A DNA stretch of 64,000 nt from positions 17,784,213 through 17,848,212 of the forward strand of contig OZ234493.1 of assembly GCA_965153455.1 (NCBI GenBank), given 5' to 3'. The translations under genes and the position numbers were made by a program. The DNA comes from Sphagnum compactum. Taxonomy: Eukaryota. The stretch's first letter is position 1. Each line of letters begins with the position of its first letter. The notes under the pieces were generated by a model. That model had not been told where the DNA came from. It ran no database searches and worked only from the letters and a program-made list of their open reading frames with translations. This document shows, piece after piece, positions 15,992 to 59,166 of the stretch.

Positions 15992-18225
15992 ACTTTGTGC
16001 TGTTGTTATGCTTGGATTCTTTTGTGAAGGTGGATTTAATTTGTTTCTTTTTCAAAGGGGGGATTGGATTCTTAGGTTGCCTTAGGTTTTGAAGGTTTTT
16101 TCCTCTGCTGTTATGGTTGGATTCTTTTTCAAAGGGGGATTGGATTGTTTTTGCCGCTCTGATTTTGTCTTGCTTTCGGGTGTGTGTGTGTTCAAGAACC
16201 ACGAGCTGAAGAGCTCTGGGGAGGAGGAGCAGGAGGTGTAAAGGGAAATGAGATTGTGGTGCAGCAGCAAATAGGAGGAGGAGCAGGAGGAGGAGGAGCA
16301 CCAGTAGCAGGTGCTTTGACAACGGGAACAGGATCATCAGCATGTCAAGAATGTGGAAACCAAGCGAAGAAAGATTGCTCATACCGTCGGTGTCGCACCT
16401 GTTGCAAGAGCCGAGGCTTTGATTGTACCACTCATTTGAAGAGTACTTGGGTTCCAGCAGCAAAGCGGCGGGAACGACAGGCAGCCGAATCAGCTGCTGC
16501 TGCCGCTGCCTCTGCTGGACTCCTTCGTCCCAAGTCATCAAAACGTGCTCGTAATACACTGGTGGGCAATGTTGTAAATTCTCTCACCACTACCTCTGCT
16601 ACATCTCCACGCGGTGGCTCTGATCTCAACTCTGCTCACCTCACCTCAACTCATCCGTCTCAACCAAGTACAGCAGCTGTCTGATCTCTAATTGCATGAA
16701 TTTTTACTTTCCTTTTGTTCAAAGTCCTCTATTTTTTTGTGAAGGAAGGAATTTGTTTCACCACATGTGATGATGATACTTGTGAAAGAAGAACTCAAGA
16801 AAGCATATCCTGTGAATTAGGGTTTAGGGTTTAGGTGTTTTGTGAATGTAGTAATGTGCTCTGACATAGTTATATCCAAATGTGTGGAATCAATCAATGA
16901 CATCAGCCTCAGCAAAGGGTGGACTTCCTCCTGAAGTGAGAGCACAGGCACTGTTCAAGTGTGTGAGATTAATGGGCGTGGAAGATGGCGAGAACGAGTT
17001 TGCATATCAGGCAACTGTCAAAATTGGGGGCCATATTTTCAAAGGTGTGCTATATGATCAAGGCGTTGACAATGGCCAACCTGTGGCACAATCTTTGGGT
17101 GAATTGCAGCTGGGTGGGAGCCGAGGTGGCATGCCATCTTCTTCTGCACTGATTGACCCTGCGTCTCTGTATGTCTCTGGGAGTGCACTCTTGGGAGGTA
17201 AGCCATCTACAGACAATTGTGAGAAACTCTTCTTTAAATTATCAGTGTAATCTGTTTGTTGTCTTTCTTGCCCAAATGAGGACAGAATACTATCCAGACT
17301 TTTTGCCTTCCACTATGTCTTCAGTGCTAGGCAAAATCATGAACTGAGTCTTCCTGTTGCTTCCAGAAGAAAATACAACAGAAATTCAGGATGCAGATTC
17401 TGTATAATGGTTTGCCTGAGATTTTGGGTAGTCATGGCACTTCATCATCACTGCTATTTGTGATGATAAAGCTAAATGGTCTGACACTTTATGAGTGACT
17501 CTTGTAAGGTTACGACTGACCATGTTCATTTTCATGTTACCTTTCAACGTGTGGTTGTGAAGATGTCTTTTAAGACAATTCTTTAGGAAACAGCTATCAA
17601 GAGGCATGGTGAAAAAACAGATGACTGTCCGAAATATTAGCCAAAACTGGATGATCATGAAAATAGTGCTAGTTCTGCATATTGATGAAAGGTTTGTGTT
17701 GTTGTCTGGTGTGGTGAATGCAGCTTTGCGATGATAAGAGTATACACATGAGAGTAGATCAGGTGGCAAAGGAAGGAAGGAAGGAAGGATTTTTTTTTGT
17801 GGGTGAAAATGTTTCCAAATCAATCCTATCCCTATCCTTATCCTACTCTCCCCCCCTTGTGCAGGAAGTAGGTGTGTTTCTTTGCACCAAAATTTGTTCA
17901 GGAAAAAACCGTTTGTTGTTATGATAGGTTGTCTCAATCTGAAGACTAAAGACTGGAAGAGTTGTTTTTTTTTTGGGGGTGTCAAAATTGTGTCAAAAAA
18001 TTGTGTGGAATTTTTGTGGGGAAAGAAATCTTTCATCTGAATTTTCAAACTCACTCCCTGTGAATGAAAAATGTCACAGGGATATGAGTGAATGTAATGA
18101 GAGTATTTGAGAGGAGAATGGTTTACTGTTTGTGTAAGTAGAACCTTTTGTCTTTGGTGGTTCAAATCATTATCTTCTCTTAACTCGCAGGTGCACAAGA
18201 CTACGAAGGTGCAGCATGCATCTGA
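15107..18225 (+). CDS. SHI: SHI/STY (SRS, LRP1-like) RING-like zinc-finger transcription factor
   Basis: Zinc finger [46 protein letters not shown] and IGGH domain [20 protein letters not shown]. Predicted exons ~15107-15845, 16197-16667, 16907(or 16913)-17197 and 18191-18225, all GT-AG phase 1. Start codon and last exon are uncertain. Confidence 0.92.
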
Positions 18226-39515: not shown

Positions 39516-40934
39516 TCATGGCACTAATTGCAGCATGTAAAGCTCTGCATCAAAATCCAGTCCTGCAGTGGCTGCTGGCATAATCTCCCCATCCACCATG
39601 CCCCCGAAAACAAGGATAGAATGACCTGAATCCAGTGCACAAGCTCCATGAAAGGACCGCTTACTTGGAGGTTGGCCCCATTGCTTCAGCTTCTTCCAGA
39701 ACCTACGAGCCAGTTTATTCCCAATGGAGTTGTCAGATCGTTGAGAGAAATTGGGGATGCATGATGAACTGCTACAGATCTGGACACCTGCACTTGGGTC
39801 AAGCACCCAAACATCCCCCTTGCGAAACCTTCGGGCATCCTCACCTCCATAGATCAATATTCTGCCGCCAAAAATCAGAGTTGCTGAGTGACCTGCACGT
39901 GGGACTGGAGCATCCTGTACAGGTTGAAGTTCACAAGCTCGCAGCTCTACCCAACTTGGGAAATCATCCTCCATGTCGAGAACCCAAACATCGTTCAAAA
40001 CCTCAAAGTGTGTCCCACGACCACCAAACAACACCATCCTCTTGCCTCCAATCCATGTAAGAGTGTGACCTGACCGAGGCATCGGTGCAACGGGAGTGAT
40101 CACCTCATGCCAAGTAGCTGGTGATTCCGCCAAATCCAACATCCATGTATCCCCTAGCCTTAAGCCATCCGAGCCAATCCCACCATAGATGACCACCTTC
40201 TTGTCACCTCCATAGCAACCTGAATGCGCACCCCGGGAAGGAGGTGATGAAACCACCTCCAACAATTGCCAGGAAGGGCTTCCATGGCCCGATATACCCA
40301 GATTCACCCATGTATCACATTGCCGCGTGCCCTTGTCATTGATTCCCCCAAACATCACCAAAGTTTCCTGCACAACGGTGCAACTCTGCCCAAATCTGCC
40401 TGAAGGGATTCCCACACAAATCTGTTGCCAACCAACACCATCACCGATTTGAGAAGGGAGAGGTGCAACCCAAGTATCATCAAGATGACGCCCACCTGCA
40501 CATCCTCCTCCATATACAGCAACCTTGCCTGCAACAGCGACCATGGAGTGCGACGCCCGTTGAGTCGGCCACAAATCCTCTTGATGAAACCTGTGCCAAG
40601 AAACAGCCTTCAAGAAGAGCATTTGACGATACACACGCTTCCATCCCCCTCTTTCTTTCCCAACTGCTGGCCATGCCTGCACTGCCATGCTTCCCCATTC
40701 ACGTGTACATATATAAGCCCACAGAGCATCTGTCTCTGCGAGCTGCCGGAATCTATGGCATGTTAGACCAAAGGAGATAACTGCTTGCACTGGCAAGTAG
40801 TACAGAATCGCCAGCACTTGATCTGATCCCAGCAAACTGAGCTCACTCGTTGCCGCTCCTCCTCCTCCTCCTCCTCCTCCTCTTCCGCATTCCGTTTCCT
40901 TCTCATTCTGTGACCACTTCATCACCATGTCCAT
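39516..40934 (-). CDS. F-box/kelch-repeat protein (At1g51550-like), intronless CDS, 472 aa
   Basis: N-terminal F-box LSLLGSDQVLAILYYLP...TCHRF...LW, followed by kelch repeats (RASHS..YGG, GRFGQS..FGG, RGAHS..YGG, RSGHT..FGG, RAGHS..YGG, RSFHG..FGG). Confidence 0.93.
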   Translation of the reverse strand: MDMVMKWSQNEKETECGRGGGGGGGGAATSELSLLGSDQVLAILYYLPVQAVISFGLTCHRFRQLAETDALWAYICTREWGSMAVQAWPAVGKERGGWKRVYRQMLFLKAVSWHRFHQEDLWPTQRASHSMVAVAGKVAVYGGGCAGGRHLDDTWVAPLPSQIGDGVGWQQICVGIPSGRFGQSCTVVQETLVMFGGINDKGTRQCDTWVNLGISGHGSPSWQLLEVVSSPPSRGAHSGCYGGDKKVVIYGGIGSDGLRLGDTWMLDLAESPATWHEVITPVAPMPRSGHTLTWIGGKRMVLFGGRGTHFEVLNDVWVLDMEDDFPSWVELRACELQPVQDAPVPRAGHSATLIFGGRILIYGGEDARRFRKGDVWVLDPSAGVQICSSSSCIPNFSQRSDNSIGNKLARRFWKKLKQWGQPPSKRSFHGACALDSGHSILVFGGMVDGEIMPAATAGLDFDAELYMLQLVP

Positions 40935-41269
40935 GCCTGATCATATCTCCACGCCACTAACCCTAAAAGATTCGCACTTGGATCTCGCTCACCGAAGGAA
41001 AGAAGACATCTGCCGGAGCCGCAGAGCCTTCTCCTTCAGGGAGGCAGGTAGGCAAGCAGAACACTGCCCCCGTCGTCGTTTCCTTACTGCTTGCTTGCTT
41101 CCGCGGCGTTCCTACCTCATCGTCTAACCCCTACTCGCTCGCCTTCACCCTGCAACTGTGCTCCTCGCGGAAACCCTAAACCGAACGTCCAAGAAACCCT
41201 TCTTGGACAGCAGCTCTTTCTTTTTAAAGGAGGAAAAATCAACGGGAAGCTTCACAGCAATTGCAGCCG

Positions 41270-55004: not shown

Positions 55005-55545
55005 AAGAACAACTACTAGACCATGCCCTAAACCATAATCATGAGAGCCCGATTGTGAAGAACTACTAAACCATACCCTAAACCTTAGACGCTAATTGAG
55101 AAAATTTCCAGCTCCAATAGCATATATTTATGTTGTTGCGGTTCAAAAGCTCATAGTTGGAACTCAGAGCTTCGCAGGCAATCCACCTTCTTTGGGTGTG
55201 CATGGGGCGCCTCGTCCTAAGTTGTGCCAAGGACATCCCCCTTACCTTGAAACCGTTAAACCCTAAACCCTAATCAAGGGAGCCTGATCAAGAAGAACAA
55301 CTTCTAGACCATATCCTAAACCCTATCCAAGAGAGCCCAGATCGAGAAATACTACTAGGTCCCATATGCTAAACCCTAATCAAGAGAGCCTAATCAGAGA
55401 ACAACTACTAGGTCCTAAACCCTAGTTACCCTAATTAAGAGAGCCTAATCAGAGAGCAACTACTAGGTCCTAAACCCTAGCTAGAGCATACCCTAAAACC
55501 TAGAACTATCTAGGGCATACTGTAAACCCTAAACCCTAATCCAGA
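55005..55545. repeat. Array of ~50-60-bp units containing telomere-like/telo-box motifs (AAACCCTAA)
   Basis: About nine CCCTAAACCCT-type motifs interleaved with AATCAAGAGAGCC and AACTACTAG blocks. Confidence 0.85.
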
Positions 55546-55640
55546 AAGCGTGATCATCTTTTCCGGCGGGCGGGAGGAGCATCGTCGTTTTTGCCTCGCA
55601 CAATTGCTCCTCGTGATTTGCAGAAGAATCTGGGTACAAA

Positions 55641-55683
55641 TGCTGAGGATCATGTAATGCCGAGAATCACATGATCCTCAGCA
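55641..55683 (-). other. 15-bp perfect hairpin in the 3'UTR of the RGF-like gene
   Basis: TGCTGAGGATCATGT (55641-55655) and ACATGATCCTCAGCA (55669-55683), 32 nt past the stop codon. Confidence 0.85.
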
Positions 55684-55715
55684 GCGCTATCATGGAGGAG
55701 CTGCTGGATTCTTGT

Positions 55716-57078
55716 CTAATTGCTTCTAGGAGGATGGTTTTCTGGGTCTCTGTAATCGCTGTCGAAATCGTTGTTGGAAGTATGAGGGAATTTGTTGTCT
55801 TTGTTGTTGGATTCTGGTAGCTTTCGTCTAAGGTCGGTGGGTCTCATCATGCGTCGTCGTCTAATTTGATGATGGGTTGTTGCTGTTGTTGTTGTAGCAG
55901 CGGCAGCAGCAGCAGCTGGTGGATACAAACTTCTTTTATGATCGACGCCGCGGACTCTGAGCTTCATCAGTATCATGTCTTTCCAGATCTTGCTAAGGAG
56001 TTTCATAACAAGATTTGTTGTTATTGTTTTCGTCGTCGTCGTCGTCTCCTCCAACAACTTGTTTTTCTGATAATTATTGGTAGCTGGATGCGCCAGATCA
56101 AGTTGCTGCTGGCGGTGGTGATATTGCACAGCATCATGTGAAAATTTTGTCCATTTTCGATGTGTGAACAACACTGGCTGCTGTGCAGCAGCTCCTTTTT
56201 TGACACTGGAGGTTTGATCTTCTGGAGCTTGTGGTGGACCATTGTATGCTTCCAGCAGTGCAAGAATGGAAGCTTGTTCTTGTTCCGTGTCTCTCTGCCA
56301 TGGGTTGCAGCAAATCGACAAGATTAGACGACAATTTCACACACTGGACTTGAAGAAGCAACCACCATAGACGAACGTCCGACATGATTTTGGAAGAGAG
56401 AAACCACCAGGACATTCACCAGCCTAACTGAAAGCCAAGTTCCTAGGAGCAAGTTCTCTAGATGAATTGTGTTCTCTAGAATCCAAAAGCTGCAATATCT
56501 CAACGTGTTCTGAGTGTGATTTTTTTTTTGGTTTTTACCTTCGATTCTGTTGTTGGACTCGATGCAGCAGCAGCATCATTCTCGGGATCTTGCACTGCCG
56601 GCGTTTCGGTGATGCGTGCCGGCGCATACTTGTTTAGAATGAGGAATTTGTCATTCGTTTCTTCTGAAAATACATCATGGAAACAAGTCACGGGATCAGA
56701 GGAGAAAACTTGAACCAAGACCAGTACTATAAACAGCTCGAGAGATGGTTCACGGCAGCAATGATTGTAAACGGCGCGGCGCATGATCAATTCACAGACA
56801 GAAATATCTAAGTACAGCTTAAACATGCAAGTAATCCGAGCGTTCTCTCTTTAAATCCGCATGCAAAATGCGTACATGTGCAGCACCGCCGCTTGCAAGC
56901 GGCGCCGACCGGCCGGGAAGACAGAATTACCTAAGCGAGCTGGATGGCTGGCGGAAGTGAAGGAAGTGCAGATGAGCAGGTGGACGAAGACGAGAGCCAC
57001 AATGGTTGTGCACCAGAATGCAGTCACAATTGGTCGAGTACCCCGCACGCTTCGTATTCTCTTTCGCACAGAGACCAT
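55716..57078 (-). CDS. RGF/GOLVEN/CLEL-like secreted peptide precursor (~283 aa); C-terminal peptide DYRDPENHPPRSN
   Basis: Exons 57078-56931 (hydrophobic signal IVALVFVHLLICTSFTSA), 56663-56539 and 56294-55716 join in frame (852 nt) with GT-AG introns. The last 13 aa fit DYxxPxxHPPxxN, as in RGF1 DYSNPGHHPPRHN. Confidence 0.8.
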
Positions 57079-59166
57079 TCTTACAACTTTTGCATAGCTG
57101 CTTCTGCTGCTGCACAACTTTGCTTAGACTCCACCTGATGATCTCCTTGCACGTCTCGACTACTACTGCATGAGCTCTTATATCGACGATCTGCAGTTCT
57201 AACAGCTGCTACGACCAAGGTCTAGTCAGTCTCTAGCTGACGACCCCCGGGAAGGGATAGATCGATCGACCCACAAGCTTGGATTCTAGAGCTCAATATG
57301 CTGCTAGCATCACGGCAGATCCTTCATCCTCAACAAGAGAGATTATATCTCTCATCACCACACAGATCAGAAGCGCGTAACAATAGAGAGAGAGAGAGCC
57401 GCGCACTCCCGCACTAAAGTAATTGATCCCGAGCTGATTGCAATCAGGTTTCAACAAAGCAGCTAGCTTTAACAGGGAGGAACACAGCCAGCTCGGAGAA
57501 TTCTAGCACACGCCAATTCATTCAACTCTGGACAACTAATCTACCTCAGAAGAAGCAGCAGGACAGTAGCAGCAGTACTAGTAGCAGCAGAAGTGGGGAA
57601 GAAGAAAGATCGCTGTCTAGAACAGTAGAACAGCCATACTATTGAGCTTTGCGTACGCTGCAAGCATAGGTACTGCAGCACAGCAGCAACAGCAGAAGCT
57701 AGTCAGTCCACACGAAGATCAGAGGAAAGAAGCTACTACATACAGCTCTGGAGTCTGCATCACATGAAACAGTCCACAAGCATTTGTATTCTGCATGAGC
57801 TGGGTTGTAGTGTGCTGTTGCTACTGCAGGAGGCGACGGTGATGACCAAGAGTTAAAATGAGAGAGAAATATTCATGCAGGACCTGAATCTGATCCAGAC
57901 TCGAAGCTCATTTATGGAGCACGTCGCGGGTACTAGCTACTGCTGCTGCTACACCCACGTCGAGCCTGGCTTCTCGTTCTGGTCCTCGTCTTCGTCCTCC
58001 TACGTCTAGATTTCCTACTCCTGAGACTCCAGGCTCCTCCTAGAAGTCTAGCTAATCCTGGAGCTCTTGCTGCTGCTCATGCCGCACAGCTACCTTACTA
58101 GGGCCTAATTCTAGTAGTAAAACAAAATACAAAAGTACAAAAACACACACACACACACACACACACATACACACATCCTCTTGCAATAACTGTCCAACAG
58201 AAACAAAATAAAAGAGTTTTTTTTTCTCGCGGGGCCTGCACCTGCAGCAAGCTCTTTTGCAGCTCGTGCTGATCAGTACTCGCAGCTGGGGGGAGGGACG
58301 GCCGGGTGGGCGGACGACTAGCTAGCTGCTAGCTACCTCAGAGAAGACTTTGGGAGTCAGCGATGTCTTTGGGTGTGCACTGTGGTGGGGTCTAGATGTC
58401 TGGGACGAGCTCTGTGTGTATGTTTGTTGTGGTGGGATCAGCGCGACGCGTTCTCGGGGAGTGGTAAGTACCTGCTCCTGCTGCTGTTGTTGCTGTTGTT
58501 GCTCCCAGCTCCATGTCTCTGTGCTTGCTTTCTGACACGAAGCATGTGCCGCCATTTTTGCACCCAATTTCATACTCTCCACACCTCGACGTCTGCCAAC
58601 ACTCTACTCATGTTCTTAATATACACATGTTTCATACCCTTCTTAATCTTTTTACTACCCACTTATCTACCTACCACCTACCTACTTACCTACCTACTTA
58701 AATATTAAGTATTTATAACAACTTTTTATTACCCACCTACTTACTTACCACCTATCTATTTACCTACCTACCTAAATACTAATTACTTATAACAACTTTT
58801 TACTACCCACCTATCTACTTACTTACCTAGATACTAATTACTTACAACAACCCATTAGCCTAAATACCTTCTCACTAATCATTTTTACATTTTATATCTA
58901 CTACACACCATAGTGGTTAGTTAAAGACTATTGCTTTGCATTTGCCACTTTCTTATGCCTTCTCCAACTGTTTTTTTCTTTGAGAGTATTTAGCTCTCAT
59001 TTATTTACCATGTGAACTGGGCTCGAGGTCATTGGTTATTGGTAATATCTTTGGCCCTTTGAAGGTATCAATTACTAGACAAGAGGTTGTTGGTTAACCG
59101 AAAGAGCTGAGATCTGGAAGTGTCAAAGGTCTTTTTGTTAACCAATTTGACCTTGAGCCAATCGTC

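Follow-up and report, generated by a model that had tools for sequence, protein, structure and literature searches.

A three-exon gene of Sphagnum compactum for an RGF/GOLVEN-type signalling peptide precursor

Does a rootless plant carry a gene for an RGF/GOLVEN/CLEL-type sulfopeptide hormone, and had such a gene been overlooked? The question was raised by a locus on the minus strand of the window, by which we mean the whole 64,000-nucleotide stretch of Sphagnum compactum DNA analysed here. Sphagnum is the main peat former and is ecologically important, and the adult plant has no rhizoids. We found that the locus is a genuine three-exon Sphagnum gene, the product of which is an RGF/GOLVEN-type signalling peptide precursor. 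Its family is known, and within it the gene is unremarkable; the RGF reading is correct but not new.

Gene structure, transcripts and annotation

Direct reading of the sequence, recomputed by script, placed the ATG at 57078 and the stop codon at 55718-55716 of the minus strand, with two GT..AG introns at 56931/56663 and 56539/56294. The joined coding sequence of 852 nt was in frame, had a single terminal stop and gave a protein of 283 aa. The boundaries read TTAG/GTAATT at the exon 1 donor, TTTTCAG/AAG and GAAG/GTAAAA at the exon 2 acceptor and donor, and ATGGCAG/AGAG at the exon 3 acceptor, the coding residues of exon 3 ending at 55719. The parts of the gene were as follows.

57079..57544, minus strand: 5' untranslated leader, 466 nt or longer, containing 6 upstream ATGs (published S. 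lescurii 1KP transcript, its start aligned by eye from 57544 downward; uATG/uORF count)
56931..57078, minus strand: coding part of exon 1, residues 1-49 and the first base of codon 50, with a hydrophobic stretch of 24 residues after a basic n-region (sequence; identical in annotated protein P0018)
56664..56930, minus strand: intron 1, 267 nt, GT..AG (sequence; RNA-library contig joint)
56539..56663, minus strand: exon 2, 125 nt, residues 50-91, with a second DPEN inside (sequence)
56295..56538, minus strand: intron 2, 244 nt, GT..AG (sequence; RNA-library contig joint)
55716..56294, minus strand: coding part of exon 3, residues 92-283 and the stop codon (sequence)
55403..55715, minus strand: 3' untranslated region, at least to 55403 (spliced RNA-library contig collinear from 56294 down to 55403)

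Both junctions were present in RNA-library contigs from a metatranscriptome of a close relative, joint 56663>56931 across intron 1 in a 58-nt contig (depth 12.9, shorter side 28) and joint 56294>56539 across intron 2 in a 1138-nt contig (depth 13.8, shorter side 127). The numbers from X3 and X4 were identical and the two were therefore counted as one data set. Unspliced contigs occurred at depth 3.8-6.2 beside the spliced ones at 12.9-13.8, and X18, probably a DNA run, was collinear through intron 2. The full-length, spliced 1KP transcript of S. palustre had the same joins at the protein level. The preliminary description had proposed that three exons splice in frame and had asked for a transcript linking the signal exon to the DY exon; the sequence, the RNA-library junctions, the 1KP transcript and the identity with P0018 bore this out. 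Another joint in X18, 55539>55896, was rejected as a repeat artefact, as a single contig carried it, with 21 letters on the shorter side, and it ended in telomere-like/low-complexity repeats.

Genuine expression was not seen in the polyA RNA-seq run X24, which carries the same species label, in the ~12% of the run that was read. All 22 reads matched the stretch only in part, 19 of them at 90-95% likeness. They lay over GCT/ACA-type low-complexity codons (55826-56109) and continued into unlike sequence, and were rejected as the gene's own and assigned to other genes. These reads are evidence neither of expression nor of its absence beyond the ~12% of the run read.

The spliced product agreed in every residue with P0018, an independently annotated public Sphagnum protein, and several Sphagnum assemblies have annotated orthologues, under 'hypothetical' or 'unnamed' labels only. 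The expectation that automatic annotation would miss the gene was thus mistaken; the correct gene model is already public, merely nameless. The implied novelty did not hold either, since Furumizu & Sawa 2021 (PMC8329595, supplementary file 1, sheet '2. Mosses') filed the orthologues RCBT-2021437 (S. palustre, full length) and GOWD-2006297 (S. lescurii) as moss RGF-like. Since 2021 it has been in print that early-diverging mosses (Takakia, Sphagnum, Andreaea) have RGF-like genes and that Bryophytina, the main moss lineage, and hornworts have lost them. The locus brings no new kind of gene, and the practical gain is its exact exon-intron structure.

The C-terminal 13-mer, its family and its precursor

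Within the product, the following features were located.

56947..57078, minus strand: signal-peptide-like or signal-anchor-like region, residues 1-44, with a hydrophobic core at about 17-40 followed by small residues, TSAS (hydropathy; AF2 helix)
56578..56589, minus strand: second DPEN tetrapeptide, residues 75-78 (sequence)
55947..56081, minus strand: prodomain helix block, residues 163-207, with W195, M198, V205 and R206 invariant across paralogues (AF2 helix, block-mean pLDDT 48-63; invariant alignment columns)
55851..55862, minus strand: RRRR basic cluster, residues 236-239 (sequence; R236 invariant across 13 orthologues and paralogues)
55818..55829, minus strand: RRKL, residues 247-250, candidate S1P/SBT6.1-type pre-processing site, 24 residues ahead of D271 (sequence; conservation)
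55719..55757, minus strand: predicted mature RGF-type 13-mer DYRDPENHPPRSN, residues 271-283, immediately 5' of the stop codon (sequence; conservation; PMC8329595 supplement)

The 13-mer occupies the last 13 codons ahead of the stop, with the sequence originally described. The pattern DY-x5-[HR]PP-x2-N-stop had a single occurrence across the six reading frames of the window and none in 200 mononucleotide shuffles of the whole window. The conservation looked for in related species was found: the 13-mer was invariant in all 10 distinct full-length orthologues and present in 32/32 stored sequences of its orthologue group. Among the 10 orthologues, variable columns numbered 0/13 in the peptide, 3/34 in residues 237-270 and 41/192 in the prodomain. 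The peptide opens with Asp-Tyr at the C-terminus of the precursor, as the peptide domain of group-H RGF/GLV/CLEL members does; in Furumizu & Sawa (PMC8329595), presumptive mature peptides start with D followed by Y, and moss RGF C-termini read R/K-G/S-N. The residues H8-P9-P10-R11-S12-N13 were invariant in 13 aligned orthologues and paralogues, apart from R/K at position 11. Prerequisites of sulfation, proline hydroxylation and trimming were also found in the sequence, namely Asp ahead of Tyr, two adjacent Pro and Asp at the N-terminus; PMC7162652 describes requirements for Asp before Tyr, for Pro and for N-terminal Asp in sulfation, hydroxylation and trimming.

An exhaustive HMMER search returned Sphagnum orthologues and paralogues only (6 proteins at E<=0.001), with three paralogue groups having the common tail F-x-H…DF-x-x-DY-[RK]-DP-x-x-HPP-[RK]-SN. 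The D-Y…H-P-P-x-S-N frame was retained in at least four paralogue groups, and paralogues with the same tail had just 30-46% overall identity. The published moss orthologues matched across the whole precursor and carry the identical 13-mer, which upholds the description of the locus as an RGF/GLV/CLEL-type precursor gene in a bryophyte. It is highly probable that the gene is the Sphagnum orthologue of the 2021 moss 'RGF-like' genes and belongs to the group-H RGF/GLV/CLEL family of tyrosine-sulfated peptide hormones. When P0018, its 60 C-terminal residues and the paralogues were compared with the local copy of Pfam, no family matched at E<=10, including GLV1-2 (PF21529) and RGF3 (PF27951, the presence of which in this copy is unconfirmed). 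The GLV1-2/RGF3 profiles do not define the family; the short peptide motif does. The nearest feature clusters in the ESM Atlas were 'Root meristem growth factor 3' and 'Gloven 1/2' (score 0.89, 173 and 177 shared features), which is a lead and not a profile match. A sub-threshold match to DUF4094 (E 0.036-0.065; 14-15 bits, the cut-off being 24.5) was taken as noise, and structure matches in the Atlas (TM 0.24-0.36 on a model with pLDDT 0.51) were discarded as meaningless.

The two 1KP orthologues, RCBT-2021437 and GOWD-2006297, agreed with the window gene in the 13-mer, the N-terminus MVSVRKRIRS…, the exon joins at the protein level, RRRR and RRKL, and differed only by a few prodomain substitutions between species. 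To these the window adds the genomic arrangement of exons and introns, the leader rich in uATGs and the neighbourhood, leaving the biology unaltered. The Takakia RGF-like peptide DYRDPETHPPRGN is identical to the window 13-mer at 11 of 13 residues, and Andreaea also has relatives. The putative mature MpRGF of Marchantia polymorpha, DYAEPDTHPPESN (PMC8462819, Table 1), likewise a group-H bryophyte RGF, is identical at 8 of 13 (D1, Y2, P5, H8, P9, P10, S12, N13) and shares the acidic positions 4 and 6 and the S-N ending; its position 11 is E, whereas mosses have R or K. The RDPE core of the window peptide, which had been called unusual, is indeed acidic, but such a core is bryophyte-wide, as the Takakia peptide and MpRGF show. 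Liverworts have a single RGF gene according to PMC8329595, against at least four paralogue groups in Sphagnum, with precursors of 222-355 aa. That source also reports functional over-expression data for MpRGF; the moss peptide is known from sequence. With Arabidopsis RGF1/GLV11/CLEL8 (DYSNPGHHPORHN, PMC8462819, Table 1) the window peptide shares 8 of 13 residues (D1-Y2, P5, H8-P9-P10, R11, N13), both being 13-mers at the extreme C-terminus. It differs from RGF1 in the charged R-D-P-E core of positions 3-7, in the long hydrophobic N-terminal segment of its precursor and in coming from a rootless plant.

The precursor had been described as unusually long. This is true beside RGF precursors as reported (100-150 aa, PMC13503966), of which it has about twice the length, but not among the Sphagnum paralogues. 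T, A, R and L are frequent in the precursor, and most of it is disordered as modelled: the AF2 model (mean pLDDT 44.6) lacks any folded domain, which suits a propeptide. Of 67 stored family members, 66 had RRKL at a distance of 24-39 residues upstream of DY, and the motif is also present in Andreaea RGF-like precursors. Together with RRRR it provides, at the motif level, a candidate basic pre-processing site of the S1P/SBT6.1 type upstream of the peptide. In the CLEL6 maturation pathway of Arabidopsis (SBT6.1, TPST, SBT3.8; PMC7162652), R-R-x-L-type dibasic sites likewise precede the peptide within the variable domain, with RRLR/RRAL as the precedent. The second DPEN had been suggested to be a relic of the peptide motif. 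We found that a 4-mer of the 13-mer recurs in 450 of 20000 prodomain shuffles (2.3%), and DPEN has neither DY before it nor HPP after it, so that a relic has no support; at this site the paralogue P0008 reads DHPD and P0011 lacks the region.

The N-terminus is the sole strongly hydrophobic stretch of the product. The first 16 residues have a net charge of +6, and the best 15-residue Kyte-Doolittle windows begin at residues 22-26 (mean 2.3-2.5), the maximum beyond residue 60 being 1.02. AF2 models a helix at 15-43, with block-mean pLDDT 50-71 over residues 11-40, and (-3,-1) cleavage candidates lie after residues 43 and 44.

Alternative readings of the tail and of the N-terminus

It is barely credible that an unrelated low-complexity protein should end in the DY…HPP..N tail by chance. 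A T/A/R/L-rich, mostly disordered product with no Pfam match at E<=10 in the local copy would suit such a reading, but it is contradicted by conservation: the tail is invariant and the remainder variable, paralogues at 30-46% overall identity have it in common, and it recurs in Takakia and Andreaea, while none of the 200 window shuffles placed the motif before a stop. Mature CIFs have about 21 residues. It is very unlikely that the peptide belongs to CIF/TWS1 or PSY, different DY-sulfopeptide families, although, according to PMC8462819, these share with RGF a secreted precursor, the Asp-Tyr start, richness in Pro and often a terminal Asn, and can be hard to distinguish from it. Their mature peptides are longer (18 residues for PSY1 in Table 1 and 17 in the CIF query pattern of that paper), compared with only 13 from DY to the stop here, and their receptors are others (GSO, PSYR). 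Length and the H-P-P-x-x-N frame thus do not fit these families, H8-P9-P10 and the terminal N match RGF1 and MpRGF, and the authors of the moss survey classed the orthologues as RGF-like (PMC8329595 supplement). An RGF-type peptide could still be an orphan ligand, the gene being transcribed but RGI lost in Sphagnum as in Physcomitrium, with the peptide inert or read by another subfamily-XI receptor. P. patens lacks both RGI and RGF according to PMC8462819 and PMC8708909, so receptor loss in a moss is possible, and clear expression was absent in one polyA run (~12% read). Nevertheless, across 10 distinct orthologues the prodomain drifts but the 13-mer is invariant and its flanks nearly so (3/34 vary), at least four paralogue groups keep the frame, and the core is retained from Takakia to Sphagnum. 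These three observations therefore imply selection on a peptide reader, and we judge an orphan ligand improbable.

A different doubt concerns the N-terminus of what would be the same RGF-like precursor. Its hydrophobic segment, about 24 residues after a 16-residue basic n-region, exceeds a typical cleavable signal peptide, and could be an uncleaved type-II signal anchor that holds the precursor in the ER/Golgi membrane, the C-terminal part being freed only by a subtilase cut at RRKL/RRRR. The single modelled helix (15-43) behind the +6 n-region, the automatic UniRef name 'Membrane-associated protein' on orthologues and a paralogue, the near-universal RRKL (66/67 stored members) and the block conserved across paralogues within the long prodomain would agree with an anchor. 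On the other hand, T-S-A-S after the hydrophobic core supplies the (-3,-1) cleavage candidates named above, and Arabidopsis RGF/CLEL precursors have a cleaved signal peptide (PMC7162652). An anchor is thus a possible but doubtful reading; if it were true, peptide release would be a regulated step. The survey of PMC8329595 set no requirement for a predicted signal peptide.

Possible maturation, perception and role

For the RGF-like precursor, we infer sulfation, cleavage and activity by analogy with the Arabidopsis pathway, as laid out in PMC7162652. The N-terminal segment would direct the precursor into the ER so that the C-terminus faces the lumen, and an S1P/SBT6.1-type subtilase may cut RRKL, and perhaps the RRRR cluster, in the Golgi. 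TPST would sulfate Tyr272, which is preceded, as required, by Asp, one of Pro279/Pro280 might be hydroxylated, and an Asp-dependent subtilase would trim to Asp271 and free the 13-mer. The peptide may then bind a subfamily-XI LRR receptor kinase of the RGI/RGFR type, the RxGG motif of which would read the sulfated Asp-Tyr. The RxR motif of the receptor would read the C-terminal Asn. Both RxGG and RxR are reported to matter for RGF recognition.

Functional work on Sphagnum RGF was not found in literature naming both 'Sphagnum' and 'RGF', judged by title, and Sphagnum was unnamed in the RGI/RGFR/LRR-RLK literature among the matches listed. Our most likely guess for the role in a rootless plant is that the peptide controls the proliferation of apical cells in the gametophore. 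Tentatively, Sphagnum may have kept a working RGF module that was lost in Bryophytina, in which at least four long, membrane-anchored precursors, released at RRKL, control stem-cell activity in the shoot-like capitulum of a plant without roots; such a module, unlikely as we hold it to be in this full form, would reveal a pre-root function of RGF signalling. Peat-moss researchers could use these genes to address RGI retention and the role of RGF without roots. A further gain is that RRKL, the F-x-H…DF block and the prodomain helix are seen to be conserved across the Sphagnum paralogues.

Gene model and transcript support

Joining the three exons of the minus-strand RGF/GOLVEN/CLEL-type gene by coordinates in a script gave an in-frame CDS of 852 nt that has a single stop, at its end, and encodes 283 residues. 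The 13-mer, RRRR, RRKL and second DPEN reported in the preliminary description were all present in the spliced product as described, and the observation of a three-exon RGF-type gene was confirmed. In six-frame translation of the window, the pattern DY-x5-[HR]PP-x2-N-stop was found a single time, as compared to 0 occurrences in 200 window shuffles.

Features of the gene and of its spliced product
57078-56931, minus: exon 1, opening with ATG at 57078; GT donor TTAG/GTAATT
56663-56539, minus: exon 2, pyrimidine-rich acceptor TTTTCAG/, donor GAAG/GTAAAA
56294-55719, minus: exon 3, acceptor ATGGCAG/; TAG stop at 55718-55716
55757-55719, minus: 13-mer DYRDPENHPPRSN, last 13 residues of the spliced product
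Residues 75-78: second DPEN, in exon 2
Residues 236-239: RRRR
Residues 247-250: RRKL

RNA evidence came from metatranscriptome contigs of a close relative aligned to the window (30 letters and 3 gaps different over 892 nt). Intron 2 was skipped in a contig of 1138 nt and depth 13.8 (56294 to 56539), and intron 1 in one of 58 nt and depth 12.9 whose shorter side was 28 (56663 to 56931); on the plus strand each jump had CT..AC ends, that is, GT..AG on the strand of the gene. The RNA-library runs X3 and X4 were counted as one data set because their numbers were identical. Translation of the published S. palustre 1KP transcript gave a full-length protein whose joins (…ARL-EE…, …TESK-RDTEQ…) match those of the window. 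Transcripts thus join the signal exon to the DY exon, as had been predicted. Beside the spliced contigs (12.9-13.8), the same RNA library held unspliced contigs of depth 3.8 and 6.2 at 56304-56502 and 56636-56960, which could reflect intron retention, pre-mRNA or DNA carry-over. X18, probably a DNA run, was collinear through intron 2. One negative result counts against the model: in about 12% of a polyA RNA-seq run bearing the same species label, genuine expression was not seen, the hits being 22 partial reads over low-complexity codons.

Letter for letter, the spliced product equals P0018, a publicly annotated protein of Sphagnum with 283 aa. Several Sphagnum assemblies carry annotated orthologues under the labels 'hypothetical' or 'unnamed protein product', and their automatic UniRef name is 'Membrane-associated protein'. 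The earlier expectation that annotation would miss the gene was therefore wrong; only its functional name is absent from public annotation. Since RNA-library contigs, published transcript and public annotation are three independent lines, the gene model is real. The short public proteins P0007 and P0009, which match window frames 56500-56850 and 56851-57123, read across introns 2 and 1; they are artefacts of gene calling that ignored introns in contigs of unspliced RNA or genomic DNA.

Identity and conservation of the RGF-like peptide

The gene belongs to a Sphagnum peat moss, and the best protein matches showed 89-97% identity over exon 3. Furumizu & Sawa (2021) searched 22 mosses, described RGF-like sequences in early-diverging lineages only, with C-termini of the form R/K-G/S-N, and inferred loss of these genes before Bryophytina diverged (PMC8329595). 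The word 'Sphagnum' occurs 0 times in the main text of that paper, being confined to figures and supplements.

Moss peptides in PMC8329595, supplementary file 1, sheet '2. Mosses'
S. palustre RCBT-2021437, full-length orthologue: DYRDPENHPPRSN
S. lescurii GOWD-2006297: DYRDPENHPPRSN
Other Sphagnum paralogues: DYKDPQNHPPRSN, DYRDPETHPPKSN, DYSDPRTHPPRGN, DYSQPQTHPPKGN, DYSDPQTHPPKGN
Takakia: DYRDPETHPPRGN
Andreaea: other peptide forms

Because orthologues with DYRDPENHPPRSN stand in this supplement, the locus is an already published RGF-like gene, known from the moss list as well as from public annotation. Of the 13 residues of the peptide, 8 are shared with Arabidopsis RGF1 (DYSNPGHHPORHN), 8 with the putative MpRGF, DYAEPDTHPPESN (both in PMC8462819, Table 1), and 11 with the peptide of Takakia. 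The moss list and these tail matches support the RGF reading. Comparison with the MpRGF and Takakia peptides shows the 'acidic core' to be a trait of bryophytes rather than something special to this gene. As an independent lead, the nearest ESM Atlas feature clusters (score 0.89) were 'Root meristem growth factor 3' (RGF3 in 67% of members; 173 shared features) and 'Gloven 1/2' (177 shared features). Pfam, scanned in a local copy, yielded neither an RGF nor a GLV match at E<=10, and our literature search found no paper on the function of Sphagnum RGF.

An exhaustive HMMER search over 1.84 billion representatives (E<=0.001) returned 6 proteins: the orthologue cluster, the fragments P0007 and P0009, and the paralogue representatives P0008 (340 aa), P0010 (355 aa) and P0011 (222 aa), with 30-46% overall identity to P0018. 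Paralogues kept W22 in the hydrophobic segment, the prodomain block W195, M198, V205 and R206, R236, and the tail F260-x-H262…D267-F268-x-x-D271-Y272-x-D274-P275-x-x-H278-P279-P280-x-S282-N283. In 66 of the 67 family sequences collected, RRKL lay 24-39 residues upstream of the DY Asp, and Andreaea precursors carry it as well. The expected conservation of the 13-mer in related species was borne out.

Variable columns among 10 distinct full-length orthologues
13-mer: 0/13
20-residue linker: 2/20
Basic-site block: 1/14
Prodomain: 41/192

The precursor, earlier called unusually long, is so against RGF precursors in general (100-150 aa; PMC13503966) but not within the Sphagnum subfamily, where 222-355 aa is the rule. 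The suggestion that the second DPEN is a relic motif found no support: a 4-mer of the 13-mer recurred by chance in 450 of 20000 prodomain shuffles, the exon-2 site has neither DY nor HPP, and its position reads DHPD in P0008, the region being absent from P0011. In one annotated Sphagnum genome, the orthologue (cluster of P0014) and the DYKDPQNHPPRSN paralogue (cluster of P0047) were on the same linkage group; their locus tags, 08G143200 and 08G016900, place them on one chromosome, not in tandem.

Targeting, and proposed maturation and perception

The product of this transcribed and spliced gene combines a hydrophobic targeting segment at its N-terminus with a conserved peptide at its C-terminus. 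In the AF2 model (mean pLDDT 44.6), which predicts a largely disordered product, the only helices apart from short ones were those at residues 15-43 and 163-207. A hydrophobic core of about 24 residues lies behind an n-region of net charge +6, with (-3,-1) cleavage candidates after residues 43 and 44. Judged from sequence, the segment could be a cleaved signal peptide; it could also be a type-II anchor. Under either targeting model the precursor has its C-terminus in the lumen, from where a cut at RRKL would release it.

By analogy with the Arabidopsis CLEL6/CLEL9 pathway as described in PMC7162652, the precursor would enter the ER, undergo SBT6.1 pre-cleavage in the cis-Golgi at R-R-x-L-type sites well upstream of the peptide, be sulfated on Tyr by TPST, which needs Asp on the amino side of Tyr, be hydroxylated at a proline, and be trimmed N-terminally after the Golgi by an Asp-dependent subtilase. 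Sequence prerequisites for every step were found in this precursor. Perception would be by an RGI-type receptor, the RxGG motif of which would read the sulfated Asp-Tyr (PMC8462819); both the RxR and the RxGG motif are reported to matter for RGF recognition (PMC8708909). P. patens is described as having lost both ligand and receptor (PMC8708909, PMC8462819). A more novel but less likely reading is that a membrane-tethered, RRKL-released RGF module acts in the rootless Sphagnum shoot apex.

Leader, 3' end and neighbouring frames

The 5' leader, of at least 466 nt (57079-57544, minus), contains 6 upstream ATGs opening uORFs of 2-25 codons, the last of which, 4 codons long, stops a short way ahead of the main ATG; such a leader may confer translational control. 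Telomere-like CCCTAAA/TTTAGGG units form the basis of a tandem repeat at 55257-55479 (53 bp x 4.2 copies, 79% matches), which overlaps both the 3'UTR end and the sequence immediately after it; AGGGTTT occurs 8 times in 55100-55718. A probable F-box/Kelch protein gene lies at 39516-40940 (minus), where a 474-aa open frame contains Kelch repeats (E 2.6e-49) as well as an F-box-like domain (E 2.4e-06). An open frame at 16163-16684 (plus), inside a G+C-rich stretch at 14-18 kb, matched Pfam DUF702 (E 7e-31), the domain of SHI/STY/LRP1-type plant transcription factors.
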